From: a virus
Lineage: Duplodnaviria; Heunggongvirae; Uroviricota; Caudoviricetes
Strand: one strand, 5' to 3'
Length of the DNA: 64,000 bases
IMG/VR virus record: IMGVR_UViG_3300047476_000806
Both the position numbers and the translations under genes were made by a program. The notes beneath the pieces were generated by a model. It was given only the letters and a program-made list of their open reading frames with translations. It was not told the DNA's origin and ran no database searches. Shown here piece after piece: positions 25,979-62,858 of the stretch. Within the stretch, counting starts at the first letter, position 1, and each line of letters begins with the position of its first letter.

Positions 25979-25982
25979 CAAC

Positions 25983-27372: not shown

Positions 27373-28089
27373 CTAATCTCCATTCCAATTTTTATACCAG
27401 CGATTAAATGCACTAATCATTGATTCATCTTTTCGCCATTCACAAGACCAACCCATGCGACCGCCTTTCCATGAACCTGCACGTTCACCTAATTCAATAT
27501 CAGAATTACAGTCAACAGTACGTTGAATCTTTCTAAACAAAGGAAGCCAAGTAAACCACTTCATTCTCCATTCACGTTCTTCACCAGCTAATCTAATCTT
27601 AGCAACTTGTTTCTTACCTGTTTTAGTATAGTGAATGACATCAACAAACTTAGCACATTCTACTTGAGTTCCTGATACTCTAGTTTTCTTCTTAGTTTTC
27701 TCAAATACATCAAACCATGTAATATATCTATTCTTTTGTCCTAGTCTATATTTTGGATAGTTGTTTCTATGATATAAACTACCGTTAGGTAAAAGCAAGT
27801 CATGTCTAACAATTGTATATTGCCAAGGCATGTCAAAAGTAATCCATCTATCACCTTTACCTAAGTAAATCCAAAACATATCACTATGAAATGAAAAGCC
27901 ATACCTTGGAGAAGACTCTCCAAATTGTCGATAAATCTTAACTTTGATGAATTTAATAGGAATATTTACGTACAATCTATACAGCGCAAATGTTAGTTTT
28001 AAGTATTTGTCATCAAATTGTTCAGTAGGCCAATCTAAAGTGATTGAAAAGAATTTAAAATCGGACCAGGCAGTATATATTTTATTCAT
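27373..28089 (-). CDS. hypothetical protein (238 aa)
   Basis: ORF rich in Trp and Tyr. No motif. Confidence 0.4.
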   Translation of the reverse strand: MNKIYTAWSDFKFFSITLDWPTEQFDDKYLKLTFALYRLYVNIPIKFIKVKIYRQFGESSPRYGFSFHSDMFWIYLGKGDRWITFDMPWQYTIVRHDLLLPNGSLYHRNNYPKYRLGQKNRYITWFDVFEKTKKKTRVSGTQVECAKFVDVIHYTKTGKKQVAKIRLAGEEREWRMKWFTWLPLFRKIQRTVDCNSDIELGERAGSWKGGRMGWSCEWRKDESMISAFNRWYKNWNGD

Positions 28090-44115: not shown

Positions 44116-44299
44116 AATATAATACTCCTCAATATTTAATAAAAGAAATACTCTGGTGTGAAGATTCATTCGTAACAACGCAGTATTACATGGGGTATAC
44201 TACGGATTCTCTGAATGTTAACTACTAAGTAGCATCTTCACTCTTTCCCGCATCCAGACACACGAGTAGAAAGGAGAGAATCAACGAAATCAATCTAAT

Positions 44300-44326
44300 A
44301 TTATAATCTTTTATTTTGTTTGTCAA
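44300..44326 (-). promoter_or_regulatory. sigma70-type early promoter (TTGACA-N15-TATAAT)
   Basis: Reverse complement is gTTGACAaacaaaataaaagatTATAAT. Confidence 0.5.
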
Positions 44327-44331: not shown

Positions 44332-45090
44332 TTATACAATAACTATAGATACGCCATCACTGTTTGAGATAACTTCTTGTTTTTTATGCCAAGGAAAGTC
44401 GTCATTATAAACATTCTTCATGATTTTATTACCTTTTTCGAAGAAAGATTTCTGAACAGAACCCTCATTACCACCTAATCTATAGTTAACAGTATGTTGA
44501 TTTGTACAAGTAAAGTTTGGAAAGTATTGTTTGATAGCACCGAAGAATTTTCTATCGGCACCCCATTGACCATACCAAGCATGTCCTATTTGAATTGCTA
44601 CATCTTTTCTTACAGCAAAACATGAAGTGTCTATATGATAAACATTCTCATCAAAGAACGTAGGCCATTTACCAAGTGATTCACAGTTATCTAAACAAAC
44701 GAATTCACCATCTTCATCATATATGTTTCTAAGAGAAAACACCCATTGATTTGTAGAATTCTCTAGCGTGTCAACAATAGTTTGAACATGTGTTGGTTCA
44801 ATCCAGTTATCTTCGTCAAGATATACAATCACATCAGCATTTACTAAGAACGAACAAGCGGCATATACTCGATGACCATACCAACCTTTACCAACATTCT
44901 CTTCTAGAGCAATTAGTTTTGTTTTTGTATATTCATCTTTATCAGTAACTTCTTGAATGCTATCAAAGTATTGCATACCATCAGCAAAGATATAATGAAC
45001 AATATCAGTATATGTTTGATTGTTTACGCTCGCAACACATTTTTCTAGATGTTTGCTACCAATAGAAGGAGTGACTACCGCTACTTTCAT
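44332..45090 (-). CDS. family-2 glycosyltransferase (GT-A fold)
   Basis: MKVAVVTPSIG at the N-terminus. The DxD-type motif is VIVYLDEDNW. Confidence 0.55.
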   Translation of the reverse strand: MKVAVVTPSIGSKHLEKCVASVNNQTYTDIVHYIFADGMQYFDSIQEVTDKDEYTKTKLIALEENVGKGWYGHRVYAACSFLVNADVIVYLDEDNWIEPTHVQTIVDTLENSTNQWVFSLRNIYDEDGEFVCLDNCESLGKWPTFFDENVYHIDTSCFAVRKDVAIQIGHAWYGQWGADRKFFGAIKQYFPNFTCTNQHTVNYRLGGNEGSVQKSFFEKGNKIMKNVYNDDFPWHKKQEVISNSDGVSIVIV

Positions 45091-45851
45091 TCTTTTCTCT
45101 CAATATCACTTTCAACGCATTCTTCACCGTATTGAATTTCAATAATTCTACATGGTTCATCAAAAGGATTAATTAGTTGATGCCATTGTTCTTTTGCTAC
45201 AAAATGAGAATCGTGTTTATCTAATCTCACTGTTGGTAACTTATATTCACCACTAAGTTGCCCTGATACTAATGATTCACCTTCACTGACTAACCAATAC
45301 TCTGAACGTTTATTATGCTTTTGCATCGATAATTTCTGACCAGGATTAATAGTCAACTCTTTAACTTTAACGCCAGGTGCTTCATGAAGTACTCGATAGT
45401 AACCCCATGGCCTGATAGTTTTTGGTGCTTTCCATTCTTCAAGAATCCATGATGATGAATTCATCTTGTTATCACCACCGATACCAAACTTGAATATTAG
45501 ATTATCATCTTTAACATCCATTTCAGGAATATTAGCTGAAGTTCTATCGCCACCATTTGCAAAGATGATTTGATTTGTTGGAAATAGTTTTCTGACTTGT
45601 GTAATAGCATCTTTTGCTGAACCATCAGAATCATCAAACTCAACAACACCCATGACATTTTTTAAACTAGAGACAATCTTTTTTCGCTCAGTATAAGGCA
45701 TAAAAAAAGCACCCTTCTTGCGAATAAGCCATGCATCGGAGTTTACTCCAACCATAACTCTTCCCAATTCGGATGCTTCTTTAATATATTCAAGATGTCC
45801 GGAATGGATTGGGTCAAATCCACCCGTTACAATAACAATTGAATCACTCAT
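45087..45851 (-). CDS. sugar-phosphate cytidylyl/nucleotidyltransferase fused to a cupin-type isomerase domain
   Basis: N-terminal VIVTGGFDPIHSGH is the (H/T)xGH nucleotidyltransferase motif. The C-terminal cupin resembles PMI type II (RPWGYYRVL...INPGQKLSMQKH). Confidence 0.5.
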   Translation of the reverse strand: MSDSIVIVTGGFDPIHSGHLEYIKEASELGRVMVGVNSDAWLIRKKGAFFMPYTERKKIVSSLKNVMGVVEFDDSDGSAKDAITQVRKLFPTNQIIFANGGDRTSANIPEMDVKDDNLIFKFGIGGDNKMNSSSWILEEWKAPKTIRPWGYYRVLHEAPGVKVKELTINPGQKLSMQKHNKRSEYWLVSEGESLVSGQLSGEYKLPTVRLDKHDSHFVAKEQWHQLINPFDEPCRIIEIQYGEECVESDIERKE

Positions 45852-49511: not shown

Positions 49512-49952
49512 ATGAAAATATTAATATTTGCTATATGTCTATTACTATGTGGTAGTGCATATGCTACCGAATTAGTGCACGAGTTTTTTTCACCAGCCTT
49601 TTCAGGTAATGGTTATTCAACTCATATATTAACCATTGAGCAAATTGAGTCTCAGCGTAAACAAAAAATTAAAGATGAACAGAAAGCGGCTGAGACTAAA
49701 GCTGAATTAGCCGCTAAACAAACAAATCTTGCTAAGTTTTTAGTGAATGTTGAGTCTAGAATATATGCTCAATTATCTAAGCAACTTGCAGATGAAATGT
49801 TTGCCGAAGGTGGTGCTGATTCCGGTGAAATGAATTTTCAAGGAACTAACATATCATGGTACAAAACAGGAAGTGATGTAACCTTAACTATTCTTGAAGA
49901 TAACGGTAATAGAACCGAAGTTACTGTGCCGATAGCAGGATTCTCATTTTAA
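49512..49952 (+). CDS. csgF: CsgF-like curli assembly component with signal peptide
   Basis: Signal peptide MKILIFAICLLLCGSAYA. N-terminal EFFSPAFSGNGYS compares to E. coli CsgF FQFRNPNFGGNPN. The C-terminal TLTILEDNGNRTEVTVPIAGFSF compares to [21 protein letters not shown]...F. Confidence 0.55.
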   Translation: MKILIFAICLLLCGSAYATELVHEFFSPAFSGNGYSTHILTIEQIESQRKQKIKDEQKAAETKAELAAKQTNLAKFLVNVESRIYAQLSKQLADEMFAEGGADSGEMNFQGTNISWYKTGSDVTLTILEDNGNRTEVTVPIAGFSF

Positions 49953-50731
49953 TGATTCGTTTATTGATACTAATATTCGTTTTGTCAGGATGTGCTAACG
50001 TTCATATGAATGCGGCAAAAGAAGAACCTGTCAAGATAGAAGCTAGAAAAAAGATTGTTGATGCTTTACCTGAATTGGATGGACCACCGATTCCTATCGC
50101 AGTGTATTCGTTCGCAGATAAGACAGGTCAAAAGAAGTCATCAGATAATCTGGCATTGTTTAGTACCGCAGTAACGCAAGGTGCAGAAGTGTTTCTAATC
50201 AAAGCGTTACAAGATAGTAAGAATTGGTTTAAAGTAGTAGAAAGGGTGGGACTTGATAATCTTATTAAAGAAAGACAGTTGATAAGAAATCAAAGAGAAG
50301 TATATGAAGGTAAAGAAGCAAAGCCATTAAAACCAATGATGGTTGCTGGTGTAATGATAGAAGGAGGTATCATTGGATATGATACTAACATCAGGTCAGG
50401 TGGTAATGGTGCTAGATTATTAGGTATTGGTGTTTCACAGCAATATAGAGTAGATGAAATTGTAATCTCTATTAGATTGGTGAATGTCAATTCGGGTGAA
50501 GTAATGTTAACTAACGCAGTATCCAAAACGATTTACAGTACTCAACATAACTTAGGTATCATGAAGTTTGTTGATTCAGGTACTAAGTCGATTGAGTTTG
50601 AAAATGGAGTTGCACTTAATGAACCTACTACATTCGCAGTAAGAGTTGCGATTGAACAAGCGGTTTATGAATTGATAATAGATGGAGAAAAGAAAGGTTA
50701 TTGGAAATTTAAAAAGGAAAAACAGCAATGA
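49952..50731 (+). CDS. csgG: CsgG-like curli secretion channel lipoprotein
   Basis: Lipobox LSGC. LFSTAVTQGAEVFLIKALQDSKNWF, EGGIIGYDTNIRSGGNGARLLGIG and RLVNVNSGEV match E. coli CsgG (NFSTAVPQSATAMLVTALKDSRWF, EGSIIGYESNVKSGGVGARYFGIG, RVVNVSTGEI). Confidence 0.75.
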   Translation: MIRLLILIFVLSGCANVHMNAAKEEPVKIEARKKIVDALPELDGPPIPIAVYSFADKTGQKKSSDNLALFSTAVTQGAEVFLIKALQDSKNWFKVVERVGLDNLIKERQLIRNQREVYEGKEAKPLKPMMVAGVMIEGGIIGYDTNIRSGGNGARLLGIGVSQQYRVDEIVISIRLVNVNSGEVMLTNAVSKTIYSTQHNLGIMKFVDSGTKSIEFENGVALNEPTTFAVRVAIEQAVYELIIDGEKKGYWKFKKEKQQ

Positions 50732-51315
50732 AAAAAATAGCATTAATCTTTATGATGATAATGCTTAGTAATGTATATGCCGCAGAAATTTATATTGAAC
50801 AGTCAGGAAGTAGTTCTACTGTCAATATAAATCAAGAAGGTATAGGTAATATTGTAGGTGATTCACTGAATCCGCTTTATATTGGCGGTGGTTCGAATAA
50901 CGTTGATATCGACCAAATCGGTGATAATAACAACCTTCAAGGTGTTGTAAATGGTGCAGGAACAGCAACCACAGTAACAACTAATGGTTCAGGTAATATT
51001 CAAATTATTAATTGTGGTACAACAACATCAGCAGGATGTTCATCATCAGTAATCAAACAAGTAGTTACTGGAAGTGATAACACTATAACTCAAGATTTAG
51101 GTACTGGTGCTAATCATAACAGTGAGATTACGATTACTGGAAGTGATAACGCAGTGACTCATACTAGCACAAATGCTGGTGCAAGTACTGTAGATATTTC
51201 AGTGAGTGGTAATCAAAATACTGTGGGAGTAACACAAAGTGGACTTACAGCGAAAACTGTATCAGTTAGTTCTACTGGTAATAGCAATAATATTACTATC
51301 AACCAGTCAGAATAG
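50728..51315 (+). CDS. secreted curlin-repeat (CsgA/CsgB-like) protein
   Basis: Signal peptide MKKIALIFMMIMLSNVYA. Repeated S/T/N/Q/G-rich units are of the form (S/G)xNxxx(I/V)xQxGxxN, for example DIDQIGDNNNLQG, ITQDLGTGANHNSEI and VGVTQSGLTAKT. AAGGAAAAAC RBS. Confidence 0.5.
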   Translation: MKKIALIFMMIMLSNVYAAEIYIEQSGSSSTVNINQEGIGNIVGDSLNPLYIGGGSNNVDIDQIGDNNNLQGVVNGAGTATTVTTNGSGNIQIINCGTTTSAGCSSSVIKQVVTGSDNTITQDLGTGANHNSEITITGSDNAVTHTSTNAGASTVDISVSGNQNTVGVTQSGLTAKTVSVSSTGNSNNITINQSE

Positions 51316-52336
51316 TTATTCAGCAATCGGTAAAGTTTCAGAACAAACAGGTCCTACCGAGATTGTCCGACAAAGCAAATCAATAGAGAGTAAATTAAAC
51401 TCTTCTATTGAGATGCTTGACACTGTGGTAACCGCAAAGTCTAAAGTGTTACTAACGTTCGAAGATGATACAACAGTTAAGATTACTGAACAATCTAAAT
51501 TAATTATCGATGATTTTGTTTATGATAATAAAAAAGGTGCTGGTAAATTAGCATTAAAAGTTGCTTTGGGTACGGCAAGATATGCTTCAGGACAGATAGC
51601 TAAGAGTAACCCACAATCAGTTAACATACAGACACCAACAGCAACAATTGCAGTTCGTGGTACTGATTTTAGTATGACTGTAGATGAATTAGGTAGAAGT
51701 TTGGTGATGCTTTTACCTTCTTGTGATAAGAAAGCGTGTGTAACAGGTGCTATTGAAGTGAGTACCGATGCAGGTTCTGTTTTTATGAATCAAGCATATC
51801 AAACAACTGTAGTTGCTACACGAGACCAAGCACCAACTAAGCCTGTGATTGTTAATATAGACCAGGCAAATATTAATAACTTGTTGATTGTTGCACCTCC
51901 AAAACAAGTAGAAGAACAAAAGATACAGCAAGATAATAAAACTGTATTAGATTATAACTTTTTAGATAGAGATTTATTAGAGTATAACAAACTAGATGAA
52001 GATGAATTAAAAAGGTTTAGTTTACTTGATATGAATTTTTTATCTTTTGATTTGTTACCAAATATTTTGGATGAATCGAATAGGTCATTAGCGGCAAGTC
52101 AAGAAGCAATGCTAGAAGAAAAAACTTTGCTTCCTGGATATAATGAAGCATCAGGATTGAAATATGGTATAGATGAAAATGGTAAGTTGATTTTAACAAA
52201 GATTGCTAATCATACTGCACAAGTGACAGTTGATAAAGAGCATGATGTGATTGTTAGTATTACGCAGGATAGTTCACCACTGATACAAAAAGTGAATGGT
52301 GGTGGAACAACAACAATTAACATTAATCAGAAATAG
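51239..52336 (+). CDS. FecR-domain periplasmic protein
   Basis: TPTATIAVRGTDFSM is the FecR signature. The N-terminal 25 codons (KLYQLVLLVIAIILLSTSQNSYSA) form a Sec signal peptide encoded in an alternative frame over the last 77 nt of the curlin-like gene. Confidence 0.45.
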   Translation: MDLQRKLYQLVLLVIAIILLSTSQNSYSAIGKVSEQTGPTEIVRQSKSIESKLNSSIEMLDTVVTAKSKVLLTFEDDTTVKITEQSKLIIDDFVYDNKKGAGKLALKVALGTARYASGQIAKSNPQSVNIQTPTATIAVRGTDFSMTVDELGRSLVMLLPSCDKKACVTGAIEVSTDAGSVFMNQAYQTTVVATRDQAPTKPVIVNIDQANINNLLIVAPPKQVEEQKIQQDNKTVLDYNFLDRDLLEYNKLDEDELKRFSLLDMNFLSFDLLPNILDESNRSLAASQEAMLEEKTLLPGYNEASGLKYGIDENGKLILTKIANHTAQVTVDKEHDVIVSITQDSSPLIQKVNGGGTTTININQK

Positions 52337-52344
52337 GAGTAAAA

Positions 52345-54339
52345 ATGCTAAAGCAATCTTTATTAACAGTGGCATTAATCGGTGTGTTTGGTACAGTTCA
52401 ATCAGCACCTTTAGTATTAGAAGGCGATTACATCAAAATTGGTGTAAACGAAGTAGGTACATTAGGTTCTAATGGTAATACATCACCTGGTGTTCTATAT
52501 GATAACACCGGCACAGGAACATTCAACACAGCATATGACTACTTAACTCCTGGTTCACCATTCGAAGGATGGACTGTTCAATATAATGGAACAGAATCAG
52601 TGATGAATAACAATGCTCAATGGTCATCACCACAAATGACAGGTACACTAACAAGTTACAATGGTGTTGCTTACAATGGTACAACATTCGACAATCGAGC
52701 AGTTTGGGAAGGTACTTCAGTAAACTTTGATTTGTTACATGATGTTCGCTTCAATGATAATCAAAAGTTTGTGGATATTACATCAATATTGACAGCTAAA
52801 GTTGCAATGACTGATTTATACTTCGCAAGATATACAGACCCTGACGCACGTGCGGCCGCTGGTGACAGTTCTGCTACAACAAACACATTAGGATTCTCAC
52901 CTATTCCAGTAACTCAAGTTGTATTTTCTGAAGCTTTAGTATCTAGATATGCACTTGGTTTATACTCAGCGGCACCTAACGTAGGCGCAGGTGTTAGTTC
53001 AGGTTGGTCAACAGACGCAACAACATATTACACCGGTGCAAATGATGGTAATGGTGACTATACGATAGGTTTAGGCTTCCACGTACCAACAGTAGCAATT
53101 GGTGACATCGTTACCTTTAATTATGCATACATCTTTGGACCTAGCACATTATCTGCTGGTTCTACTGCTGTTACTTCAGGTGCTGGTGGTGGCGTTCCTG
53201 GTGAAGTTCCTGGTTGTGTGTCTGATTGTACATTACCACCTGACCCTAGTTCAACTCCTACATTAGTATCAACAGACGTTGAGTTATCTAGTGTATCTGT
53301 AGTTCATAGAGGTGATACTGATACTGCAATCGAATACGACTATGCAACATCAAAAGGTTCTAAAGTATTAGCTGTAAATCAAACTACAACTACAACTTTA
53401 ACAACTCCAGTAACAACTACAGTAGCTTCTACTTCAACTACAGTTGAAACATATAGTGATTCATCAGTAGTTCGTACAGTTGGTGCAACTACAACGACAT
53501 CAAGTACAGTTAATGACGTAACAGAATCAGAATATGATACTGCATTCTCAACAAGAATTGACCAATTTGATAGATTGTCAGCATCAAATGAAATGTACAA
53601 TAGACAGTTAAATAGTAATATCATGGATAGATTTGTAGCAGGTCAAACTGGTGCTTATTTAAACATCGATAGTCAAACTAGCAATACACAAGATACCTAT
53701 AAACAAAAAGCAAATCGTTTTGGTGTTGGAGTAGACAAGTCTATTACTGATAATTTGAATGTAGGTTTTCAATACAATAACATTTCATCAAGATTATCTG
53801 GAACTAATGCAGGTGGACGTTTAGATAAAAATCATGTTGGTGCATATGCTGTATACACTAAAAACAATTGGGTGTTTGTAAACGATATTGGTTTCTCATA
53901 TAACGATTACAAAACAAATCACAGTTTACCTGAATTGAATGCAACAAATAGTTCAAGTGCTAATGGATATGACTTATGGGTTAGCGGTAGAGCATATACT
54001 CCATCACTAAAAGGATTCAGACCATATGCTGGTATTAGAATTGAAAACAACAACTTAGATTCAGCTAAAGATAAAGGTACTGAATTGACTGCTGTTAGTT
54101 ATAGTAAAATTAATTCAACAAATACAACAGGTGAATATGGTATCAGATACGATTATCAATACAAAAAAGTTAACTTGTTAGCTGAAGTTGGTTCTAATTC
54201 TGATAATATCAAACTATACAAAGCAGGTATTAACTTTATTCCAAATGAAAAAGTTATTGGTGGTGTATCATTTACGCAACAAGAATATGATAATATCAAG
54301 AATGATGTGATTTCAGCTAATATAAAAGTTAATTTCTAA
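52345..54339 (+). CDS. autotransporter-like outer-membrane protein (signal peptide, passenger, Thr-rich linker, C-terminal beta-barrel)
   Basis: Signal peptide MLKQSLLTVALIGVFGTVQSAP. T-rich linker TTTTTLTTPVTTTVASTSTTVE. The C-terminal ~270 aa have alternating hydrophobics and end ...NIKVNF, with an OMP-type terminal Phe. AGGAG RBS. Confidence 0.5.
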   Translation: MLKQSLLTVALIGVFGTVQSAPLVLEGDYIKIGVNEVGTLGSNGNTSPGVLYDNTGTGTFNTAYDYLTPGSPFEGWTVQYNGTESVMNNNAQWSSPQMTGTLTSYNGVAYNGTTFDNRAVWEGTSVNFDLLHDVRFNDNQKFVDITSILTAKVAMTDLYFARYTDPDARAAAGDSSATTNTLGFSPIPVTQVVFSEALVSRYALGLYSAAPNVGAGVSSGWSTDATTYYTGANDGNGDYTIGLGFHVPTVAIGDIVTFNYAYIFGPSTLSAGSTAVTSGAGGGVPGEVPGCVSDCTLPPDPSSTPTLVSTDVELSSVSVVHRGDTDTAIEYDYATSKGSKVLAVNQTTTTTLTTPVTTTVASTSTTVETYSDSSVVRTVGATTTTSSTVNDVTESEYDTAFSTRIDQFDRLSASNEMYNRQLNSNIMDRFVAGQTGAYLNIDSQTSNTQDTYKQKANRFGVGVDKSITDNLNVGFQYNNISSRLSGTNAGGRLDKNHVGAYAVYTKNNWVFVNDIGFSYNDYKTNHSLPELNATNSSSANGYDLWVSGRAYTPSLKGFRPYAGIRIENNNLDSAKDKGTELTAVSYSKINSTNTTGEYGIRYDYQYKKVNLLAEVGSNSDNIKLYKAGINFIPNEKVIGGVSFTQQEYDNIKNDVISANIKVNF

Positions 54340-54363
54340 TTTTTAACGACTAAATAAGTAATC

Positions 54364-56382
54364 ATGAAAAAATTACTTAATCCATGGTTAGCGTTAATAA
54401 CGTTAACTTTATTAGTAGTAATCAGATTGGCAGACTTCAGTTTTATCGAGTCTGTCAGATTGCGATATTTTGACACATTAATTACAAGTGAATCTGTAAA
54501 GGTTTCTGAACAAATTCACGTTGTAAATATAGATGATAAGTCCATAGAAAAGTATGGACAATTTCCGTTTCCTAGAGGTGATTATGCGAGCATTATTGAT
54601 TCTTTGTATGACCGTGGCGCTGGGCTGGTTGTTTTTAACTTGTTTCTACCTGATAGTGATAGGTTTGGACAAGATGGTAGACTTACTTCTACCCTTAACA
54701 AACACCCTGTAGTATTCCCACAAGCTGGTTCTACTGATAAACAAAAAGCTATACCATTTAGACCTGGTGTTTCTGAGATTGGAACACCAGCTTCTAATTT
54801 TGCAGTATCTTATCCAAGTATTTTAACTAACATAAAACAAATTAATGAAAATGCCGCTGGCATTGGAGTAGTGAATGTATTACCTGAAATTGATGGTGTT
54901 GTCCGTCGTGTACCTATGGTCGTCTCAAGCAATGGCGTATTGTTTCCCTCAATCACACTTGAAACTTTGCGAGTTGCTTCCGGAGACCCAAGTTTCCAAG
55001 TCAAGTCAACAGATTACGGTATCGAGGCCGTCAGAATACCTAGCTTCAGAAAAGTTGAAACTGACTCTTTCGGACGAGTTTGGATTGACTGGTCCACTAA
55101 GCCTACCGAACACAGTCTTGTTGATTTACCCAAGTCCTTTGATGGGACAATCGTCATTGTTGGACTCAGTGCTAAAGGACTCAACAATCCTGTCGCAACA
55201 GCAAGAGGAGAGGTCTATCCGCATTATTTACAGGCAAGCGTTCTAGATACACTTGTATCAGGTAAAAATATTAGTAGACCTGACTGGTCAAATGGTGTAG
55301 AATTATTATTGACAGTTATTCTGTCTGTGATATCTATATTATTAACTAGGTGGAAATATGGCTTTATTGCTTTTCTTGCTATCATTGCTGGTGTTGTGGG
55401 TGCTTCTAAAGGTGCTTTTGTTTACTATTCGTATCTTCTTGATTGTATTTTTCCTGTGTTTTGCTTGGGTATTGTTTATTTACATGTGTATACAGTTAAG
55501 TTCGTAAGCGAATTAAATCAAAAACTTCAAATCAAAAAACAATTTGGCACATATCTGTCGCCAGCACTTGTTGAAAAACTTCAAAAGAATCCTGAATTAT
55601 TAAGACTTGGTGGTGAGTCTCGTGAACTATCTATTATGTTCACCGATGTTAGAGGCTTCACTACAATCTCAGAACACTATGGTAAAGATGTTCAAGGATT
55701 AACTCAAATTATGAATCGCTACATGACAGCGATGACCGCAAAGATTATTGAGAACAACGGAACACTGGATAAATACATTGGTGATGCTCAGATGGCTTTC
55801 TGGAATGCACCACTTGATGAGCCTAACCACGCTAAATTGGCATTGAAAACGGCTCTAGAAATGATGGAGAGTTTAGATGCGTTTAATAAAGAGATTCAAA
55901 AAGAGGGTATTCCGGCGTTTGGTATGGGACTCGGGATTAATACTGGCACTGTTGTCGTTGGTAATATGGGTTCTAGCCAACGCTTTGATTACACCTGCTT
56001 AGGTGATGCTGTTAACTTAGCGTCACGTTTAGAAGGACAATCGAAACCTTATGGTGTTAAAATCATATTAGGTTCGTTAACTGCTGAACAAGTTAAAGAT
56101 GAATATCCAGTTGTTGAGTTAGATTGTATTGCTGTTAAAGGTAAAACAGAAGGTGTTAAGATTTATACTCCTTGTGTTTATCAAGAAGAGCATTATAAGT
56201 TACACAAAAAATATCTAAAATCATACTATGATGGTATTTGGGATTCAGCAATTTTCTTTGCTAAAGATTTAGAGATTAATGGTCCTACAGAATTACGTCA
56301 ATATTATCATAACATGATAGAGAGAATGCTTGAAGGTAAACCTGAAGATTGGGATGGTACGTATAGAGCAACTAGCAAGTAA
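54364..56382 (+). CDS. CHASE2 sensor-domain class III adenylate/guanylate cyclase
   Basis: N-terminal TM plus the CHASE2 pattern (IHVVNIDDKSIEKYGQFPFPRGDYASIIDSL...GAGLVVFNLFLPD), then several TM helices, then the cyclase core (SIMFTDVRGFTTISE, GDAVNLASRLE). Confidence 0.75.
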   Translation: MKKLLNPWLALITLTLLVVIRLADFSFIESVRLRYFDTLITSESVKVSEQIHVVNIDDKSIEKYGQFPFPRGDYASIIDSLYDRGAGLVVFNLFLPDSDRFGQDGRLTSTLNKHPVVFPQAGSTDKQKAIPFRPGVSEIGTPASNFAVSYPSILTNIKQINENAAGIGVVNVLPEIDGVVRRVPMVVSSNGVLFPSITLETLRVASGDPSFQVKSTDYGIEAVRIPSFRKVETDSFGRVWIDWSTKPTEHSLVDLPKSFDGTIVIVGLSAKGLNNPVATARGEVYPHYLQASVLDTLVSGKNISRPDWSNGVELLLTVILSVISILLTRWKYGFIAFLAIIAGVVGASKGAFVYYSYLLDCIFPVFCLGIVYLHVYTVKFVSELNQKLQIKKQFGTYLSPALVEKLQKNPELLRLGGESRELSIMFTDVRGFTTISEHYGKDVQGLTQIMNRYMTAMTAKIIENNGTLDKYIGDAQMAFWNAPLDEPNHAKLALKTALEMMESLDAFNKEIQKEGIPAFGMGLGINTGTVVVGNMGSSQRFDYTCLGDAVNLASRLEGQSKPYGVKIILGSLTAEQVKDEYPVVELDCIAVKGKTEGVKIYTPCVYQEEHYKLHKKYLKSYYDGIWDSAIFFAKDLEINGPTELRQYYHNMIERMLEGKPEDWDGTYRATSK

Positions 56383-56905: not shown

Positions 56906-56984
56906 TGGTGGGCCCCGTGGGATTCGAACCCACTGTCTATCGGTTATGAGCCGATTGCTTATACCAGATTTAAGCTTGAGGCCC
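56906..56984 (-). tRNA. tRNA-Ile2(k2CAU) or tRNA-Met, anticodon CAT
   Basis: Hand-folded cloverleaf. Acceptor GGGCCTC/GGGGCCC with C4-G69 and C5-G68. Anticodon loop CTCATAA. T-loop TTCGAAT. CCA encoded. Confidence 0.7.
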
Positions 56985-56989
56985 GAATA

Positions 56990-57063
56990 TGGAGCGTCCT
57001 GCGGGAATCGAACCCGCCTCTTCAGCTTGGAAGGCTGTAATAATACCACTATACCAAGAACGC
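56990..57063 (-). tRNA. tRNA-Gly(TCC)
   Basis: Cloverleaf. Anticodon loop CTTCCAA. T arm GCGGG/TTCGATT/CCCGC. CCA encoded. Confidence 0.7.
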
Positions 57064-57340
57064 ATAACGGATGAAAAAGCAAGTAAAAGACGGGACAATG
57101 TACATTAGAAGGGCTATGCCACTAAACTCTAAGACAATCAACAAACCACAATAATCAAAACCTGCATATTAGTTAGAAACAAAACACAAAGTCGTCGTTT
57201 ATAATACTAACACACGCAGAACGATTTCAGGTCGTTTTGGATTTGGCGTCCATACTGGAGAGAAATTAATCTCATCTTAGTCAATTCTCATCTCTTTTTC
57301 ATGCCGAGTAGATTTTTTGAAGAAAACCTACCAGAAAAAC

Positions 57341-57907
57341 TTAAAGAATACCTGCTTTAGTTAGTGTTTCCACTACGTTATCAGGTAACTCAATCTCAGT
57401 CTTAATATTCAATTCAAGAATCTTATCTTGAATTTTTTGCTTCTCTTTTTTGAATGTAGAAACATTCTTTTTAGCAATAGAAATATTACCTTCAGTACAT
57501 ACGGTAGTAGTTACTTCATCGGCTCTACCATATACACTTCTAGTAGTATCTGTATTGTTTTTAATCTTATCAAGCTTACCTTCGACAATATTAATAGCTG
57601 TCGCTGGTGCTGAAGTTGCTATGTTTTGATGTAGATGAATAGTCTTTTCAATCAATGCAACATCACTTAACAAATCATTAATTTGATTTGCGTTTGCTTT
57701 ACCAACTAGTTTTCTAATCGTATACAAACTAACATACAAATCATTATTTACCTCAAAAGCTGTTAAATAATCTTTGTTTGCTTTATCAAACTTTTCAGAT
57801 ACATTTTCAAACTCATTGAATGTAACCATATTGTTTAGCTGATTATTCTTAATAGTATCAAGAATAGTTTGTTGTAATGCATTTGCTTTTCTAAGCGTAA
57901 TTTTCAT
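57341..57907 (-). CDS. hypothetical protein (188 aa)
   Basis: ORF inside the tRNA island. Confidence 0.4.
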   Translation of the reverse strand: MKITLRKANALQQTILDTIKNNQLNNMVTFNEFENVSEKFDKANKDYLTAFEVNNDLYVSLYTIRKLVGKANANQINDLLSDVALIEKTIHLHQNIATSAPATAINIVEGKLDKIKNNTDTTRSVYGRADEVTTTVCTEGNISIAKKNVSTFKKEKQKIQDKILELNIKTEIELPDNVVETLTKAGIL

Positions 57908-57915
57908 AATAACTC

Positions 57916-58101
57916 CTAATGTGCTAAAATCTTAAAGCACTTAAATTTAATAACTTTTGTTGTACCTGAAGCCATCTTCTTAGCTTCTTCACCTGCGGCA
58001 ACACATTCTTGTTGTGAAAAGAAACCTGGTACATTAGTTAATGCCATCGAATCAGTATCACTCATCATACCTGCATGTGCAAACAATAATAAAACCCACA
58101 T
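57916..58101 (-). CDS. hypothetical small protein with N-terminal hydrophobic segment (61 aa)
   Basis: MWVLLLFAHAGMMS. Confidence 0.3.
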   Translation of the reverse strand: MWVLLLFAHAGMMSDTDSMALTNVPGFFSQQECVAAGEEAKKMASGTTKVIKFKCFKILAH

Positions 58102-58123
58102 AATAAATCTCCAATAATAAGAA

Positions 58124-58199
58124 TGGTGTCCCCGGAGAGAATCGAACTCCCGTATAATGCTTTAGAAGAGCACTGCGTCATCCACTACGCTACGAGGAC
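58124..58199 (-). tRNA. tRNA-Arg(TCT)
   Basis: Canonical 76-nt cloverleaf. Anticodon loop CTTCTAA. A73. CCA encoded. Confidence 0.8.
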
Positions 58200-58234
58200 A
58201 TTTGAAAGCATATTACTATACTTTACTTTAAATG

Positions 58235-58795
58235 TCAAATATATCTACTATGTTTAGGTAGTTTAGACTTTAAGTATTCCATTTGGTCAGCAACTACGTT
58301 TCTATTCTGTAGAATAAAGTGTTCCCATCTACAAGGTCTGTAAGGTAAAAACAACAATAACATATTAGCTTCTTCAGGTGTTCTATCTGCTTTCTTAGAG
58401 TTACAGTGCTTACATGAAGACACTGAGTTTTCCCAAGCATTAGAACCACCACGACTTCTTGGATGTACGTGGTCTCTAGTCAAATCTTTTGATTCAAAGA
58501 ATAGTCCACAGTAAGCACATAAGTTATGGTCTCGTCTGAATAACAAAAAGTTACCGTGAGCATTCACAGTTTCTTTAGTATGCAATCTTCGAGTTTCACC
58601 TCTTACTGAGATGATAGACTTGATACTGATTTGAGATTGTAAACCATTCTTTTGATAGCCGCCATGAAACACTTGAAACTCAGTACCTAAGTCCCAAACA
58701 ACTTTATCTGAGGCGTAGTAATGCACCGCTTCTTCGGGCATCAGCCACTTGAAGGGATTACCTGCAATATCTAGTCCTAGTATACGTGCTTCCAT
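58235..58795 (-). CDS. HNH endonuclease
   Basis: CAYCG...LTRDHVHPRSRGGSNAWENSVSSCKHCNSKK is an HNH motif with Zn-binding cysteines. Confidence 0.65.
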   Translation of the reverse strand: MEARILGLDIAGNPFKWLMPEEAVHYYASDKVVWDLGTEFQVFHGGYQKNGLQSQISIKSIISVRGETRRLHTKETVNAHGNFLLFRRDHNLCAYCGLFFESKDLTRDHVHPRSRGGSNAWENSVSSCKHCNSKKADRTPEEANMLLLFLPYRPCRWEHFILQNRNVVADQMEYLKSKLPKHSRYI

Positions 58796-58845
58796 GATAG
58801 TCTCAAAAAAATAATTTAGATGTTATATGTATATATCTTTAAAAT

Positions 58846-58922
58846 TGGTGCGGAAGGAGGGAGTCGAACCCTCAAAACTCGGATTTTAAGTCCGATACGT
58901 ATGCCAATTCCGTCACATCCGC
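58846..58922 (-). tRNA. tRNA with anticodon TAA (Leu UUR decoding) but class-I architecture (5-nt variable region)
   Basis: Perfect 5-bp anticodon stem TCGGA/TCCGA with loop CTTAAAA. T arm GAGGG/TTCGACT/CCCTC. 3-bp D stem. A73. One T-T mismatch at 6:67. CCA encoded. 77 nt. Confidence 0.55.
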
Positions 58923-59001
58923 TTATTAAATTTAGAACGTTGCTGTTTCTGAACCCTAGTAGTAACAATAAAGTTAAAAAATTACAGCAACGCTCTAAAA
59001 C

Positions 59002-59078
59002 TGGTAGAAGTAGTGAGATTCGAACTCACGATAGGTTGCGTATGAAGCAACTGCATTAAGCCACTATGCTACACTTCT
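59002..59078 (-). tRNA. tRNA-Met(CAT) (elongator-type)
   Basis: Cloverleaf. Anticodon stem GTTGC/GCAAC, loop TTCATAC. T-loop TTCGAAT. CCA encoded. Confidence 0.7.
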
Positions 59079-59269
59079 GTTAAAACTTTTTGCTTCATAA
59101 ATTGGCAGTATGCTTTATAATCTTCATGCATTGCCTTTTGTATTAACTCATCAGTGCTTTTATAAAAAATATGTCCAACTAGTTTTAATCTAATAGACTC
59201 ATATAAACAGTCCATCTTCAATTCTTCAGATGGAGGATATTCTTTATAAAACTCTTCATAAGTTAACAT
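59069..59269 (-). CDS. hypothetical protein (66 aa)
   Basis: The real start is ATG at 59269 with an AAGGA RBS. The ORF-track start at 59290 runs into tRNA-His. Confidence 0.3.
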   Translation of the reverse strand: MLTYEEFYKEYPPSEELKMDCLYESIRLKLVGHIFYKSTDELIQKAMHEDYKAYCQFMKQKVLTEV

Positions 59270-59279
59270 AATAATCCTT

Positions 59280-59355
59280 TGGGGTGTCATACGAGATTTG
59301 AACTCGTGCTATAACATTCACAGTGTTAGGTGCTAACCACTACACTAATGACACC
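59280..59355 (-). tRNA. tRNA-His(GTG)
   Basis: Anticodon loop CTGTGAA. Discriminator C73. Encoded extra 5' G(-1). T-loop TTCAAAT. Confidence 0.8.
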
Positions 59356-59361
59356 ATTAAA

Positions 59362-59435
59362 TGGCTCCGGTGGAGGGAGTCGAACCCCCGCCAAGAGGTT
59401 TGGAGTCTCTTGTGCTACCGTAACACTTCACCGGA
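59362..59435 (-). tRNA. tRNA-Trp(CCA)
   Basis: Anticodon loop CTCCAAA, identical to E. coli tRNA-Trp. G73. Perfect acceptor TCCGGTG/CACCGGA. Confidence 0.75.
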
Positions 59436-59442
59436 ATAAAAC

Positions 59443-59519
59443 TGGAGGATAGAGTGAGATTCGAACTCACGAACCACTGCTTTGCAGGCAGGTACCTTAG
59501 ACCACTCGGTCATCTATCC
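59443..59519 (-). tRNA. tRNA-Cys(GCA)
   Basis: Anticodon loop CTGCAAA. Discriminator U73. T arm GTGAG/TTCGAAT/CTCAC. Confidence 0.75.
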
Positions 59520-59741
59520 TTAACAACAACCTGCATCTGGAAAAATAAATACTTTTTCTTCAGCAGAATCATCAGTATTATATTCAATAAATGTGTTAAT
59601 TTCTTCTTGTGCAAATGTAACACCTTCATTCTCTGCTAAAAACGTAGCATCAGCTAGATTATCAGCAACTACAACTAACCCGCCATCTGAATGGTAATTG
59701 TCAGTTAGATTAGCAATCCTTGTCCAAATAAAAACTTTCAT
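59520..59741 (-). CDS. hypothetical acidic protein (73 aa)
   Basis: ORF whose stop abuts the tRNA-Cys 5' end. Confidence 0.35.
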   Translation of the reverse strand: MKVFIWTRIANLTDNYHSDGGLVVVADNLADATFLAENEGVTFAQEEINTFIEYNTDDSAEEKVFIFPDAGCC

Positions 59742-59744
59742 AAT

Positions 59745-60161
59745 CTACTCCAATGGAAATAATTCTTTAAATTTTGCAGTCATTACATCAATTAAAACTG
59801 GATGACGATAATCGTAGTCATCTTCAATTTCTAAATTAATTACTTGTTTAAAATCAAAATCAAATGTCCAATTATCCATATCATTAAACATTTTGTTTTG
59901 CATTGTATTGATATGTAATTGTTGAATACTATCCATCACTAGAATAACATCAGCCCAAATAATCAAAGCTTCAGTCACAGGAATAATCGCATATTCTGCA
60001 CTAGTTCCTGCACATCTAGTATTGAAGTTCCATGGTTCTGAACTAAGAATATGTGCCGCTGTAGGACTTCTTAGACATCCTGCTGAACATACAGTCAATA
60101 CTTTCTTATGCTTTCCTTGATAAGCATTGAATATCACCCCAAGTTGGTTTCTTTTTAGCAT
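59745..60161 (-). CDS. low-molecular-weight protein tyrosine phosphatase / ArsC-fold protein
   Basis: P-loop VLTVCSAGCLRSPTAAHIL has the form C-x5-R-S. The start is uncertain, as the ORF overlaps the upstream ORF. Confidence 0.45.
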   Translation of the reverse strand: MLKRNQLGVIFNAYQGKHKKVLTVCSAGCLRSPTAAHILSSEPWNFNTRCAGTSAEYAIIPVTEALIIWADVILVMDSIQQLHINTMQNKMFNDMDNWTFDFDFKQVINLEIEDDYDYRHPVLIDVMTAKFKELFPLE

Positions 60162-60330
60162 TCTTACTTTCCTTAATAAAAATCTTTAGTGTTCTACCTT
60201 CATCTTGAAGACTAAACTCTAATGATTCTACATTCCAATTAGTATAACTACGACCTTTACCATCAATCACTTCAACTCTAGTGACATCATAATAAGGCTC
60301 TTCAAATCTATTAATATGCGGATTGGTCAT
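60106..60330 (-). CDS. hypothetical protein (74 aa)
   Basis: ORF. Confidence 0.3.
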   Translation of the reverse strand: MTNPHINRFEEPYYDVTRVEVIDGKGRSYTNWNVESLEFSLQDEGRTLKIFIKESKNAKKKPTWGDIQCLSRKA

Positions 60331-60883
60331 GGAATGTAAATCCTTTATTCTTAAATTTTTGTAATCGCCACTCTTTAATAAATTTGATATCAGTATTATA
60401 GATTAGCTTCTTATTCATACATGCGTCATACTGTTCTCGTGAGATAAACAACTTATCTTGCATCAACAAATAGTAAGGTTTGCAATGAACAAAGTCAAAA
60501 TGATTTCGAACATCATTAGGATGTCCTGCAAACGTGAAGATGAATGAGTCATCAGTCTTCATGGTAATCGCATTAGCGGTAATCATTTTACCATTATTAT
60601 CTGCGTGTTCCATGTAATTGATATTGACTTCTTTAATCTCATCATCATAATTCTTTTCTATGTGTTCTTTAAATGTTACGGCAGAATCTTGGTCATAGAA
60701 ATAAAAGTCCCAATCTTTAGGTATTTCGCCCCTTAATAGAGAACCGATTGCACCACCTGAAAGATACACGGCATCATTTTCATACAGCATTTTCCACCAA
60801 TCAAAATTCTTCAATGCTTCCATATGGAATTTAATGGTGTCTTTTACATCTTTAATTTTATTCTTTTCGTTTTCAGTAAACAT
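60311..60883 (-). CDS. Pol-beta-superfamily nucleotidyltransferase-like protein (190 aa)
   Basis: YLSGGAIGSLLRGEIPKDWDFYF matches the hG[GS]-x9-DxD nucleotidyltransferase motif. Confidence 0.4.
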   Translation of the reverse strand: MFTENEKNKIKDVKDTIKFHMEALKNFDWWKMLYENDAVYLSGGAIGSLLRGEIPKDWDFYFYDQDSAVTFKEHIEKNYDDEIKEVNINYMEHADNNGKMITANAITMKTDDSFIFTFAGHPNDVRNHFDFVHCKPYYLLMQDKLFISREQYDACMNKKLIYNTDIKFIKEWRLQKFKNKGFTFHDQSAY

Positions 60884-60945
60884 ACAATCACCTAATCATA
60901 ATATAAAATAATCATACATCAAAATTAATTTAATGTAAAGCATTA

Positions 60946-61021
60946 TTTGGTAGGACCCCTCGGAATCGAACCGAGTCCTCAGCGTCTTCAGCGCCACGTA
61001 CTGACCACATATACGTGAGTC
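60946..61021 (-). tRNA. tRNA-Phe(GAA)
   Basis: Cloverleaf. Anticodon loop CTGAAGA, with U33 and anticodon GAA. T arm CTCGG/TTCGATT/CCGAG. A73. Position 37 is G, which is atypical. Confidence 0.6.
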
Positions 61022-61023
61022 CT

Positions 61024-61099
61024 ATTGGTACTCGAAGAGAGAATCGAACTCTCATTTGACGATTATCGGTCGTCTGTTCTAAACCGTTGAACTATTCGA
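61024..61099 (-). tRNA. tRNA-Ile(GAT)
   Basis: Perfect D and anticodon stems. Anticodon loop CCGATAA (C33). T arm GAGAG/TTCGATT/CTCTC. Confidence 0.65.
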
Positions 61100-61102
61100 G
61101 CA

Positions 61103-61603
61103 TTAATAAACAACATTATAGCAACAATTAAGTACTACTCTCTCAATATTGCTATTCTTAACTTGTTCTACTTTATGATAATACCAAGGCATCATATTAA
61201 CAAAAATACATGTTCCATATTTTGGATATACTGTGAACACTTCTTCTTGAGCATTCTTGAAACTGATAGAACCACCAGTTTCTTCGTTCATATCATTAAA
61301 GTATACTAAAGCAAACAGATTCCAACCTTCTCTTAAATCGTTGTGCCAATCACAACTAGTTGGTTCTGTACCTTTCCATAATTCTGTTTTTCCAACATCT
61401 ACAGATTGAAACGACTTGTTTAATATTGTAACAAGCTTTTCATTAATAGATTTTATAGCGTTATCTAAATTGTCATCATCTTTAGGTTCATATACATTGT
61501 TTAAATGTTCGTCTTTCCATATGATTAATTTTAAATCAACATCCGATAACAACTCAGAAATGTCGATTTGATGATAACCTTTTTCTATTAAATCATTTAT
61601 CAT
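61103..61603 (-). CDS. 2OG-Fe(II) oxygenase-superfamily-like protein (166 aa)
   Basis: HxD (CDWHND) and a distal His (YYHKV) are spaced as in the double-stranded beta-helix oxygenases. Weak assignment. Confidence 0.35.
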   Translation of the reverse strand: MINDLIEKGYHQIDISELLSDVDLKLIIWKDEHLNNVYEPKDDDNLDNAIKSINEKLVTILNKSFQSVDVGKTELWKGTEPTSCDWHNDLREGWNLFALVYFNDMNEETGGSISFKNAQEEVFTVYPKYGTCIFVNMMPWYYHKVEQVKNSNIERVVLNCCYNVVY

Positions 61604-61616
61604 AATCTTCCTTTAT

Positions 61617-61692
61617 TGGACCCCTCTGCAAGAATCGAACTTGCATCATAACGTTCGTAGCGTTGTATTCTAATCCATTGAACTAAAAGGGG
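61617..61692 (-). tRNA. tRNA-Arg(ACG)
   Basis: Anticodon loop CTACGAA. T arm GCAAG/TTCGATT/CTTGC. CCA encoded. Confidence 0.7.
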
Positions 61693-61698
61693 TAAAAC

Positions 61699-61773
61699 TG
61701 GCGACTCGTGGGGGAATCGAACCCCCGTATCCTACTAGACAGGCAGGCATAATAACCATTATATCAACGAGTC
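61699..61773 (-). tRNA. tRNA-Asp(GTC)
   Basis: Anticodon loop CTGTCTA. G73. T arm GGGGG/TTCGATT/CCCCC. Perfect acceptor. Confidence 0.7.
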
Positions 61774-61823
61774 AAAAAACTTTCAAGCAATTGTTTTCAG
61801 CAATCGATGAAAGCCGTGTTACA

Positions 61824-61898
61824 TGGTGCCCCGTGACGGATTCGAACCGCCATAACCTGATTACAAAACAGGCATAATAGCCTTTATATGAACAGGGC
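61824..61898 (-). tRNA. tRNA-Thr(TGT)
   Basis: Anticodon loop TTTGTAA. T-loop TTCGAAT. CCA encoded. Confidence 0.7.
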
Positions 61899-61903
61899 AA
61901 AAC

Positions 61904-61979
61904 TGGTACTCAGTGAAGGAATCGAACCTTCCTAAGCTATCTTGTAAGGATAGTCTCTAGCCAATCGAGTCAACTGAGT
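61904..61979 (-). tRNA. tRNA-Val(TAC)
   Basis: Perfect anticodon stem CTATC/GATAG. Loop CTTACAA. U8. T arm GAAGG/TTCGATT/CCTTC. Confidence 0.7.
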
Positions 61980-61984
61980 ATAAT

Positions 61985-62059
61985 TGGTGGAATAGGCGAG
62001 ACTCGAACTCGCAACAGTCTGCTTGCAAAGCAGGTGAACTCCCATTGTTCTACTACCCC
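61985..62059 (-). tRNA. tRNA-Ala(TGC)
   Basis: Anticodon loop TTTGCAA. The acceptor stem carries the G3-U70 Ala identity pair. T-loop TTCGAGT. Confidence 0.75.
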
Positions 62060-62065
62060 AAAACT

Positions 62066-62140
62066 TGGTCTCTCAGGTAGGACTCGAACCTACATCGTCT
62101 ACGCCCCAAACGTAGTGACCAACCTCTGGCCCACTGAGAG
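62066..62140 (-). tRNA. tRNA-Pro(TGG)
   Basis: Perfect anticodon stem CTACG/CGTAG. Loop TTTGGGG with G37. Perfect acceptor CTCTCAG/CTGAGAG. Confidence 0.75.
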
Positions 62141-62147
62141 TTAAAAC

Positions 62148-62224
62148 TGGCTGTGTACCTAGGATTCGAACCTAGCGCATCTTGATTAACAGTCAAGCCT
62201 TCTCACCTAGAGAAGTCGTACACA
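62148..62224 (-). tRNA. tRNA-Asn(GTT)
   Basis: Perfect D stem CTTC/GAAG. Anticodon stem CTTGA/TCAAG. Loop CTGTTAA. G73. Confidence 0.75.
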
Positions 62225-62232
62225 ATAAAACT

Positions 62233-62309: not shown

Positions 62310-62317
62310 ATTAAACT

Positions 62318-62733: not shown

Positions 62734-62741
62734 ATAAATCT

Positions 62742-62816: not shown

Positions 62817-62858
62817 AAAACTTGGCTCGTTTTTATAGAGGTGAACACTCCTCATGTT

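Follow-up and report, generated by a model that had tools for sequence, protein, structure and literature searches.

A coupled pair of sugar genes

We have analysed two overlapping genes in a 64,000-nucleotide stretch of viral DNA (IMG/VR record IMGVR_UViG_3300047476_000806, Caudoviricetes), the whole of which is called the window below and which derives from a marine, pelagimyophage-like myovirus of the T4 type. The first gene (45087..45851, minus strand) codes for a protein of 254 amino acids (aa) in which a nucleotidyltransferase of the HxGH class is fused to a cupin of the type II phosphomannose isomerase (PMI) kind, as judged from the open reading frame (ORF), Pfam and NCBIfam matches and an AlphaFold model; we refer to it as the fusion. 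The second gene (44332..45090, minus strand) codes for a soluble GT-A glycosyltransferase of the GT2 family, of 252 aa, with its DxD motif at D92-E-D94, recognised by PF00535, motif conservation and its own model. Both ORFs lie where an initial annotation of this DNA had placed them, with the lengths and strand given there, and the strings that it quoted from the fusion, VTGGFDPIHSGH and RPWGYYRVL...NPGQKLSMQKH, are present. Its domain calls, a nucleotidyltransferase plus PMI cupin followed by a GT2 with a DxD, are borne out by Pfam, all scores cited here for the two proteins exceeding the gathering cut-offs.

The two genes are translationally coupled, as had been proposed, since the GT2 start codon overlaps the fusion stop codon in an ATGA that can be read directly in the sequence (gaATGAaag; 45087..45090, minus strand). 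The gene upstream of the fusion stops 2 nt ahead of the fusion ATG. The base composition of the pair is the same as that of the remaining window, both genes are under strong purifying selection, and both are real genes, chance ORFs being excluded. Promoter and terminator scans of the region gave nothing above chance. A sigma-70-like match (TTGACA-17-TAATAT; 44298..44326, minus strand) begins 6 bases past the GT2 stop; it is a match to the consensus alone, such sites being no more frequent here than chance would give, and it suggests that the pair may close one transcription unit, with the next one starting there.

Domains and conserved residues of the fusion

The N-terminal half of the fusion (about residues 1–140; 45432..45851, minus strand) is defined by invariant motifs, by PDB sequence matches and by a match to HldE, and contains the Pfam domain CTP_transf_like (PF01467, residues 8–79, E 2e-9). 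The C-terminal half (residues 144–253; 45093..45422, minus strand) matches MannoseP_isomer (PF01050, E 1.6e-22) over its whole length, and also Cupin_2 (PF07883). Among 34 sequences with 64–85% identity to the window protein, 89 of the 254 positions are invariant, and these include all the catalytic motifs: TGGFDPxHxGH, NSD, RKKG, NGGDR, IPE and NSSS in the N-terminal half, and Q177, H179, R182, E184, H224 and N228 in the cupin, where S175 is near-invariant. The cupin positions correspond to those that serve catalysis and metal binding in type I and type II PMIs (PMC9602691). The AlphaFold model has a predicted local distance difference test score (pLDDT) of 90.6, and the best target-normalised structural matches of the cupin are the Thermococcus phosphomannose isomerases 7zvy and 7zvm (TM-score 0.87–0.88, root-mean-square deviation 1.6–1.7 Å); its sequence is 34% identical to the C-terminus of E. 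coli ManC. The N-terminal domain matches in the PDB the cytidylyltransferase domain of Fom1 (5x3d), ECT (3elb), HldC (5x9q) and TagD (1coz), and the nucleotidyltransferase domain of E. coli HldE matches 76 of 76 phage fusions, with up to 58 bits. Neither the fusion nor the GT2 has a membrane segment.

The best NCBIfam matches of the fusion are the C-terminus of GMP_PMI (TIGR01479) and rfaE_dom_II (TIGR02199), both far under their equivalog cut-offs. The first scores 70.4 bits against a cut-off of 372.95 and is limited to profile positions 357–461 of 467; the second, HldC/RfaE domain II, scores 49.6 bits against 181.5, and the glycerol-3-phosphate cytidylyltransferase TagD (TIGR01518) 32.8 bits against 165.4. 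The best PHROG match of the N-terminal domain is likewise rfaE domain II/HldC, whose fold and motifs it has (PF01467, the invariant motifs and the match to 5x9q). It had been named a cytidylyltransferase; the nucleotidyltransferase part of that name stands and the cytidylyl part does not, as the domain scores best against the adenylyltransferase HldC/RfaE domain II and its gene context is that of GDP-mannose. Public annotation of the fusion stops at 'cytidyltransferase-like' or 'adenylyltransferase/cytidyltransferase family protein'.

Among characterised enzymes, the bifunctional type II PMI/GMP proteins (ManC/CpsB, AlgA, WbpW and PslB; TIGR01479) offer the closest parallel in design. The C-half of the fusion is a PMI cupin homologous to theirs, by PF01050, by the conserved residues and by its closest structures, with the same catalytic Ser/Gln/His/Arg/Glu/His; they join steps 1 and 3 of a pathway in one polypeptide, as the fusion would, and they keep the same genomic company as the fusion, namely Gmd, Fcl and mannosyl or fucosyl transferases. 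The two differ in the N-terminal domain, which in type II PMI/GMP is a GT-A-like NTP_transferase of about 280 aa and in the fusion an unrelated HxGH, Rossmann-type cytidylyl/adenylyltransferase of about 140 aa. The Pfam search gave no PF00483 match, the GT-A-like guanylyltransferase domain, in the fusion, which is shorter as a whole (254 aa versus about 470–480 aa), and its use of GTP is a prediction.

The GT2 and its locus

The 252-aa protein is a GT2-family enzyme by its Pfam match (Glycos_transf_2, PF00535, E 1.4e-7, 32 bits against a gathering cut-off of 23.3), its GT-A fold and its DxD. The latter lies in the string YLDEDNW, in which D92-E93-D94-N95 are invariant among 32 homologs, and the block GKGWYGHRVY...YLDEDN shows few, conservative substitutions in the same set. 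Confidence in the model is moderate to good (pLDDT 82), and Foldseek against the PDB returned SpsA (E 1.7e-12), chondroitin and heparosan synthases, RmlT, TarP and WrtF at a TM-score of about 0.6, that is, a generic GT-A fold. The protein has no hydrophobic segment (Kyte-Doolittle 19-residue maximum 1.17). We considered a seroconverting Gtr system (GtrA/GtrB/GtrC), in which a membrane-anchored bactoprenol glucosyltransferase works with a flippase and a serotype-specific membrane transferase, and rejected it, given this absence of a hydrophobic segment and neighbours that are small proteins without a family match.

A survey of 80 loci picked by their match to the GT2, and not to the fusion, showed nearly all of them to be syntenic, in the order RNaseH, DUF6433 gene, (fusion), (small ORF), GT2, (SDR), ClpP-like gene, where SDR stands for a short-chain dehydrogenase/reductase. 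The GT2 occurs alone in 16 of the 80 loci and with the SDR in 42; the fusion and the GT2 without SDR, as in the window, are found in 8, and all three genes in 14, so that the fusion accompanies the GT2 in 22. From these arrangements it follows that the GT2 is constant in the lineage and that the fusion is optional. Most relatives have the SDR after the GT2; with only 21–32% identity to Gmd, Fcl, HldD or RmlB, it gives no clue to the GT2 donor. The translational coupling in the window is real, but it is not obligatory: as a fixed pairing it does not hold, the association being facultative both ways, and elsewhere the fusion pairs with many other transferases.

Distribution of the fusion in phages and cells

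A megablast search of the region against 50,697 phage records gave no match, and tblastn against the same records gave half-length matches only, which indicates that no cultured phage carries the fusion. In cyanophages and in marine viral single-cell contigs its two halves have their matches in separate genes, the C-half in the MPI of S-SCSM1 and the N-half in 'rfaE/TagD-like' genes of cyanophages. Unlike the window fusion, then, the two halves are in cultured phages separate genes in different phages. In metagenomes we found more than 120 fusion clusters at 64% identity or above, in IMG/VR contigs 583 fusion relatives, and in a scan of species-representative cellular genomes at least 582. The cellular fusions are full length, 40–56% identical, and lie on chromosomal contigs of up to 836 kb; their carriers include SAR11, SAR86, SAR116, Marinimicrobia, Dadabacteria and Thermodesulfobacteriota, among others. 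Fusion similarity does not discriminate the host, SAR86, SAR11 and various metagenome-assembled genomes (MAGs) all standing at 49–56%. In 37 SAR11 species genomes the gene occupies one conserved core neighbourhood, polA, fusion, MFS transporter, pckA. The fusion is thus a widespread, uncharacterised family that is not phage-specific.

Gene neighbourhoods of the fusion

In phages the fusion is the anchor gene ahead of hypervariable sugar islands. We recorded the next gene in 76 phage fusion loci and searched the genes of 83 related loci, over about 10 kb around the fusion. The gene that follows is a GT8-like transferase in 19 of the 76 loci, a member of a paralogous family that we term c0 in 9, and an SDR in 7, with others in the remainder; the window-type GT2 is in this position in just 13. 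Further island genes code for FkbM, TylF and class-I methyltransferases, a NodU-like carbamoyltransferase, and pyruvyl-transferase-like and UDP-glucose-dehydrogenase-like proteins. Family c0 has 104 members of about 250–330 aa, arranged behind the fusion in up to 4–5 tandem copies per island (for example at 9354–16549 of locus L001, and at many other phage loci) and the conserved motifs DxGYFGN and NSxAAVESxIxGIPVF; it had no match in Pfam, NCBIfam or a PDB profile search, and may be a new transferase family.

No other sugar-1-phosphate nucleotidyltransferase was found in any phage island. A canonical ManC N-domain, a ManB phosphomannomutase and an RmlA-type nucleotidyltransferase were found in none of the 83 phage loci and in none of 80 cellular fusion loci; in both sets the fusion is the sole sugar-activating enzyme. 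Enzymes that consume GDP-mannose are recurrent neighbours. In seven phage loci, from a phage type other than that of the window, the fusion is succeeded by Gmd (297–307 bits to E. coli Gmd) and then by the window-type GT2, and Fcl-like SDRs are present at two phage fusion loci. At loci L008–L013, L017 and L018 the order fusion, Gmd (415 aa), window-type GT2 stands directly upstream of a large-terminase-like gene; since this neighbour is unlike the context of the window lineage, the module appears to be mobile between phage lineages.

Cellular loci show the same company. In six of them (L148, L149, L151 and L154–L156) the gene after the fusion encodes a GT2 whose nearest match is dolichol-phosphate mannose (DPM) synthase (5mlz, E 6e-19), and the one after that a true Gmd (476 bits to NCBIfam gmd, cut-off 415; 333–359 bits to E. 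coli Gmd). We looked for kinship of the window GT2 with these DPM-synthase-like and with WrtF-like fusion-linked bacterial GT2s, and hhalign probabilities of 7% and 36% showed no specific relationship. An Elusimicrobium MAG (L157, 8001–11868) carries a natural split form of the fusion: nucleotidyltransferase and PMI cupin each have a gene of their own, the two lying side by side with a stop codon after ...NRWEGK, and the operon continues with a WrtF-like fucosyltransferase (E 2e-20), Gmd (509 bits against the E. coli enzyme) and the GDP-fucose synthase Fcl (287 bits). As the ManC N-domain and phosphomannomutase are missing from these loci and Gmd-type neighbours are present, the fusion fills the place usual for manC. 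GDP-mannose dehydratases have been reported in SAR11 hypervariable regions (bioRxiv 10.64898/2026.04.03.716430), and SAR11 therefore requires a source of GDP-mannose. The general idea of the initial annotation, that the fusion makes an activated sugar for a glycosyltransferase, is in line with these results, as phage and bacterial neighbourhoods alike put the fusion firmly in nucleotide-sugar pathways.

A predicted nucleotide-sugar synthase

We propose that the fusion works as a bifunctional synthase of the nucleotide-activated form of a manno-configured sugar, a functional analogue of ManC/AlgA, and that the soluble GT2 transfers the sugar to an acceptor other than DNA; from motifs, folds and gene context we give this proposal a probability of roughly 55%. 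The cupin half would convert a ketose phosphate into a manno-aldose phosphate, most likely fructose-6-phosphate into mannose-6-phosphate, and the HxGH half would activate the corresponding sugar-1-phosphate with a nucleoside triphosphate. The fusion would thereby provide the first and the last step of the pathway, the middle step, that of phosphomannomutase, coming from the host. GDP-mannose is the most likely product and ADP-heptose a less likely one; in other phages GDP-mannose would feed tailoring enzymes of the Gmd/Fcl type. The GT2 would move the sugar, made by the fusion or by the host, to an acceptor at the cytoplasmic face, probably a precursor of a host envelope glycan or a protein.

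Envelope glycosylation, which the initial annotation had offered as its alternative, is also the published reading of such genes in pelagimyophages, where 'rfaE', UDP-glucose dehydrogenase and GT8 have been described as auxiliary genes related to lipopolysaccharide (LPS), in clusters of two or three (PMC7029224). Stand-alone type II PMIs are known and abundant auxiliary metabolic genes (AMGs) of phages, and that of S-SCSM1 lies within a GDP-mannose/GDP-fucose cluster (PMC9602691). The setting of the S-SCSM1 enzyme (ORF118) and of the 'LPS-related' clusters is that of the window pair, small groups of sugar genes scattered in T4-like marine phages (PMC7029224, PMC9602691), and the pair is a minimal version of these variable clusters of pelagimyophage-type T4-like phages.

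Several points weigh against our proposal, whose weakest part is the nucleotide. The N-terminal domain finds its top family match in rfaE domain II. We know of no HxGH-class enzyme that makes a GDP-sugar, and the only HxGH-class sugar-1-phosphate enzyme known to us is HldC, whose product is ADP-heptose. The window does not encode Gmd, SDR, mutase, kinase or phosphatase, and the pathway here is therefore incomplete and host-dependent. As to the GT2, homology does not point to its donor or acceptor, SpsA being the top match of the profile search against the PDB with an E-value of 2e-4 only; in addition, 58 of the 80 GT2 loci are without the fusion, so the GT2 does not need it. Finally, one phage locus pairs the fusion with enzymes of heptose synthesis.

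This locus (L079, 11033–13278) carries, after the fusion, a heptose-7-phosphate kinase of the HldA type (rfaE_dom_I, E 1e-47), a small WbuC-like cupin, a HAD protein similar to GmhB and to RB69 p051 (1e-11) and HldD (E 4e-58), that is, a near-complete phage-borne ADP-heptose pathway from which GmhA alone is missing. It brings up the alternative that the cupin is a non-SIS sedoheptulose-7-phosphate isomerase, analogous to GmhA, and the N-terminal domain a heptose-1-phosphate adenylyltransferase of the HldC type, with the GT2 acting as a heptosyl-type or other transferase on the LPS core or another glycan. The conversion of sedoheptulose-7-phosphate to glycero-manno-heptose-7-phosphate is the same chemistry as that of fructose-6-phosphate to mannose-6-phosphate. 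HldC/RfaE domain II is the best-matching characterised family of the N-terminal domain in NCBIfam and PHROG, shares with it the HxGH, VNSD and GGD motifs, and acts on a manno-configured sugar-1-phosphate, as we propose for the fusion, while the HldE domain of E. coli recognises every phage fusion; in SAR11 the fusion holds a core, non-island position, as the heptose genes do in E. coli. We consider this alternative somewhat unlikely, and retain it as a serious rival because of the scores against HldC, the L079 cluster and the core location in SAR11. The fusion remains far below the HldC equivalog cut-off, its N-terminal domain is joined to a PMI cupin and not to an HldA kinase, and sequence and structure alike place the cupin in the PMI family. 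HldA, GmhA, GmhB and HldD are absent from the window, and kinase and phosphatase accompany the fusion in L079 alone among the 83 phage loci. The recurrent neighbours use GDP-mannose (Gmd, Fcl, the DPM-synthase-like GT2 and the WrtF-like fucosyltransferase), and a heptosyltransferase of the WaaC/WaaF type was found at no phage or cellular locus.

The nature of the acceptor raises a second alternative, that the targets are proteins, either structural ones of the phage or those of the host, to which the GT2 and the other transferases of the islands attach the sugar supplied by the fusion. Capsid glycosylation by virus-encoded enzymes is established for chloroviruses and some mycobacteriophages. 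The enzymes are soluble and cytoplasmic, no flippase, polymerase or initiating phosphoglycosyl transferase was found in any island, and island hypervariability would suit a surface-exposed trait. The pair, however, sits in an early-type region away from the structural genes, and neither an acceptor motif nor linkage to structural genes was seen, and we regard protein glycosylation as decidedly unlikely.

Whichever manno-sugar is made, two enzymatic novelties can be envisaged. The HxGH domain would be an unrecognised sugar-1-phosphate guanylyltransferase, with the fusion a non-orthologous replacement of ManC, or the cupin would be a non-SIS sedoheptulose-7-phosphate isomerase replacing GmhA; either way the fusion might be the main route to an activated manno-sugar in SAR11, SAR86 and many other marine bacteria, captured by their phages as the entry gene of hypervariable glycan islands. 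This wider proposal is tentative, and we hold it a little short of even odds.

Comparison with DNA hypermodification in RB69

The initial annotation had likened the pair to the hypermodification of DNA in RB69, taken there to be an arabinosyl-hydroxymethylcytosine (hmC) pathway. That model has to be corrected, as the modified base of RB69 and DLP3 is 5-hydroxycytosine (5hoC) and not hmC: in the characterised pathway a ThyA homolog makes 5-hydroxy-dCMP, UDP-arabinose is produced by a SIS isomerase, a MurU-like nucleotidyltransferase-kinase and a HAD phosphatase, and the transfer of the sugar on DNA falls to GT-B enzymes (PMC13326640). The RB69/DLP3 genes are clustered beside uvsX. RB69, DLP3 and RL38J1 all have their sugar and transferase genes grouped with that of the ThyA homolog, and every one of these transferases resembles GT-B enzymes (PMC13326640).

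We searched for these components with RB69 p003, p028 and p045–p055 as queries, by phmmer and tblastn, and the positive controls UvsX and gp43 were found. No ThyA/gp42 homolog, dCTPase, SIS arabinose-5-phosphate isomerase (API), MurU-like nucleotidyltransferase-kinase or GT-B transferase of the RB69 kind was present in the 64-kb window or in the 83 phage fusion loci, the single match to any RB69 component being the HAD of L079. Pfam scans of 20 further window ORFs, the larger ones, revealed no ThyA-type hydroxymethylase, DNA methyltransferase or TET/JBP protein. As to a glucosyl-hmC system of the T4 type, the gp42 dCMP hydroxymethylase and the gp56 dCTPase were not found within the window, which does not reach the replication module where a gp42-like gene would lie, T4 alpha-gt and beta-gt not being among the queries. 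The analogy with RB69 hence fails for every component tested, and what the arabinosyl-5-hydroxycytosine pathway (AfhE/AfhF, API and the GT-B arabinosyltransferases) has in common with the window pair is an abstract logic only, in which an isomerase leads to a nucleoside diphosphate sugar and to its transfer in a T4-like phage. No component has the same fold, and the base hydroxylase that accompanies that pathway, a ThyA homolog, was not found in the window.

We therefore consider it very improbable that the GT2 puts an activated sugar on a hydroxylated base (hmC, 5hoC or hydroxymethyluracil) to evade restriction. Some observations are compatible with it: the GT2 is constant in its lineage, soluble, and encoded in an early or replication-type region beside RNase H, gp32 and gp59; hypervariability such as that of the fusion-headed islands would be expected of a defence-evasion trait; and our view of this genome covers 64 kb only. 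Besides the negative searches in the window, they are outweighed by the GT-A fold of the window transferase, as opposed to the GT-B fold in RB69, DLP3 and RL38J1, by the presence of the fusion as a core gene of SAR11 and in bacterial polysaccharide loci, and by the content of the other islands, whose many transferases, together with O-methyl-, carbamoyl- and pyruvyl-transferases, suggest a complex glycan. For cyanophage T4-likes, moreover, gene 42 alleles were not reported (PMC2993671). Nothing ties the gene pair to DNA modification, and the locus drops off the list of candidate DNA-hypermodification systems.

Implications for marine phages and bacteria

Phage sugar modules of the LPS-related AMG class were already known, and the window pair belongs to that class. 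What is new is the recognition of the fusion as a widespread and unstudied architecture that probably replaces ManC, or GmhA and HldC, in abundant marine bacteria and their phages. If this is true, GDP-mannose or ADP-heptose is made in SAR11, in SAR86 and in hundreds of their phages by means of an architecture annotated only as 'cytidyltransferase-like protein', a gap in the metabolic reconstructions of SAR11 and SAR86 would be filled, and there would be an explanation for the entry point of the surface-glycan islands on which phage-host recognition depends. With its conserved anchor gene and the fast-changing transferases and tailoring enzymes behind it, the arrangement also gives a handle on the remodelling of glycans by marine phages during infection.

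Other features of the window

The window encodes T4-like baseplate proteins (gp5, gp6, gp7, gp8, gp27 and a gp48-like protein) as well as RNase H, gp32, gp59, an RNA ligase, PhoH and GroES. Among cultured phages it comes closest to Methylophilales phage Melnitz and to Mosig and HTVC008M, two Pelagibacter phages, with about 40–44% identity for gp6, and its curli genes and scattered sugar genes agree with the published description of pelagimyophages (PMC7029224). The curli-like cluster (49512–56382, plus strand), which matches the pelagimyophage 'curli operon', comprises CsgF (49512–49952), CsgG (49952–50731), a curlin-repeat protein (50728–51315), a FecR-like protein (51239–52336), a 664-aa protein and a 672-aa protein with CHASE2 and nucleotide cyclase domains (54364–56382), all on the plus strand.

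Candidate counter-defence and nucleotide genes lie at 22560–28089 on the minus strand, and code for a SAM-lyase-like protein (22560–23087), the 5'-nucleotidase NT5C (23128–23631), an SNase (24765–25190) and an Acb3-like CBASS inhibitor (27373–28089), each on that strand. At 56906–63092 (minus strand) there are 24 tRNA genes that cover most amino acids, and within this array we find an HNH endonuclease (58235–58795), a Gad2-like anti-Gabija protein (60311–60883, PF26128) and a 2OG-Fe(II) oxygenase (61103–61603).

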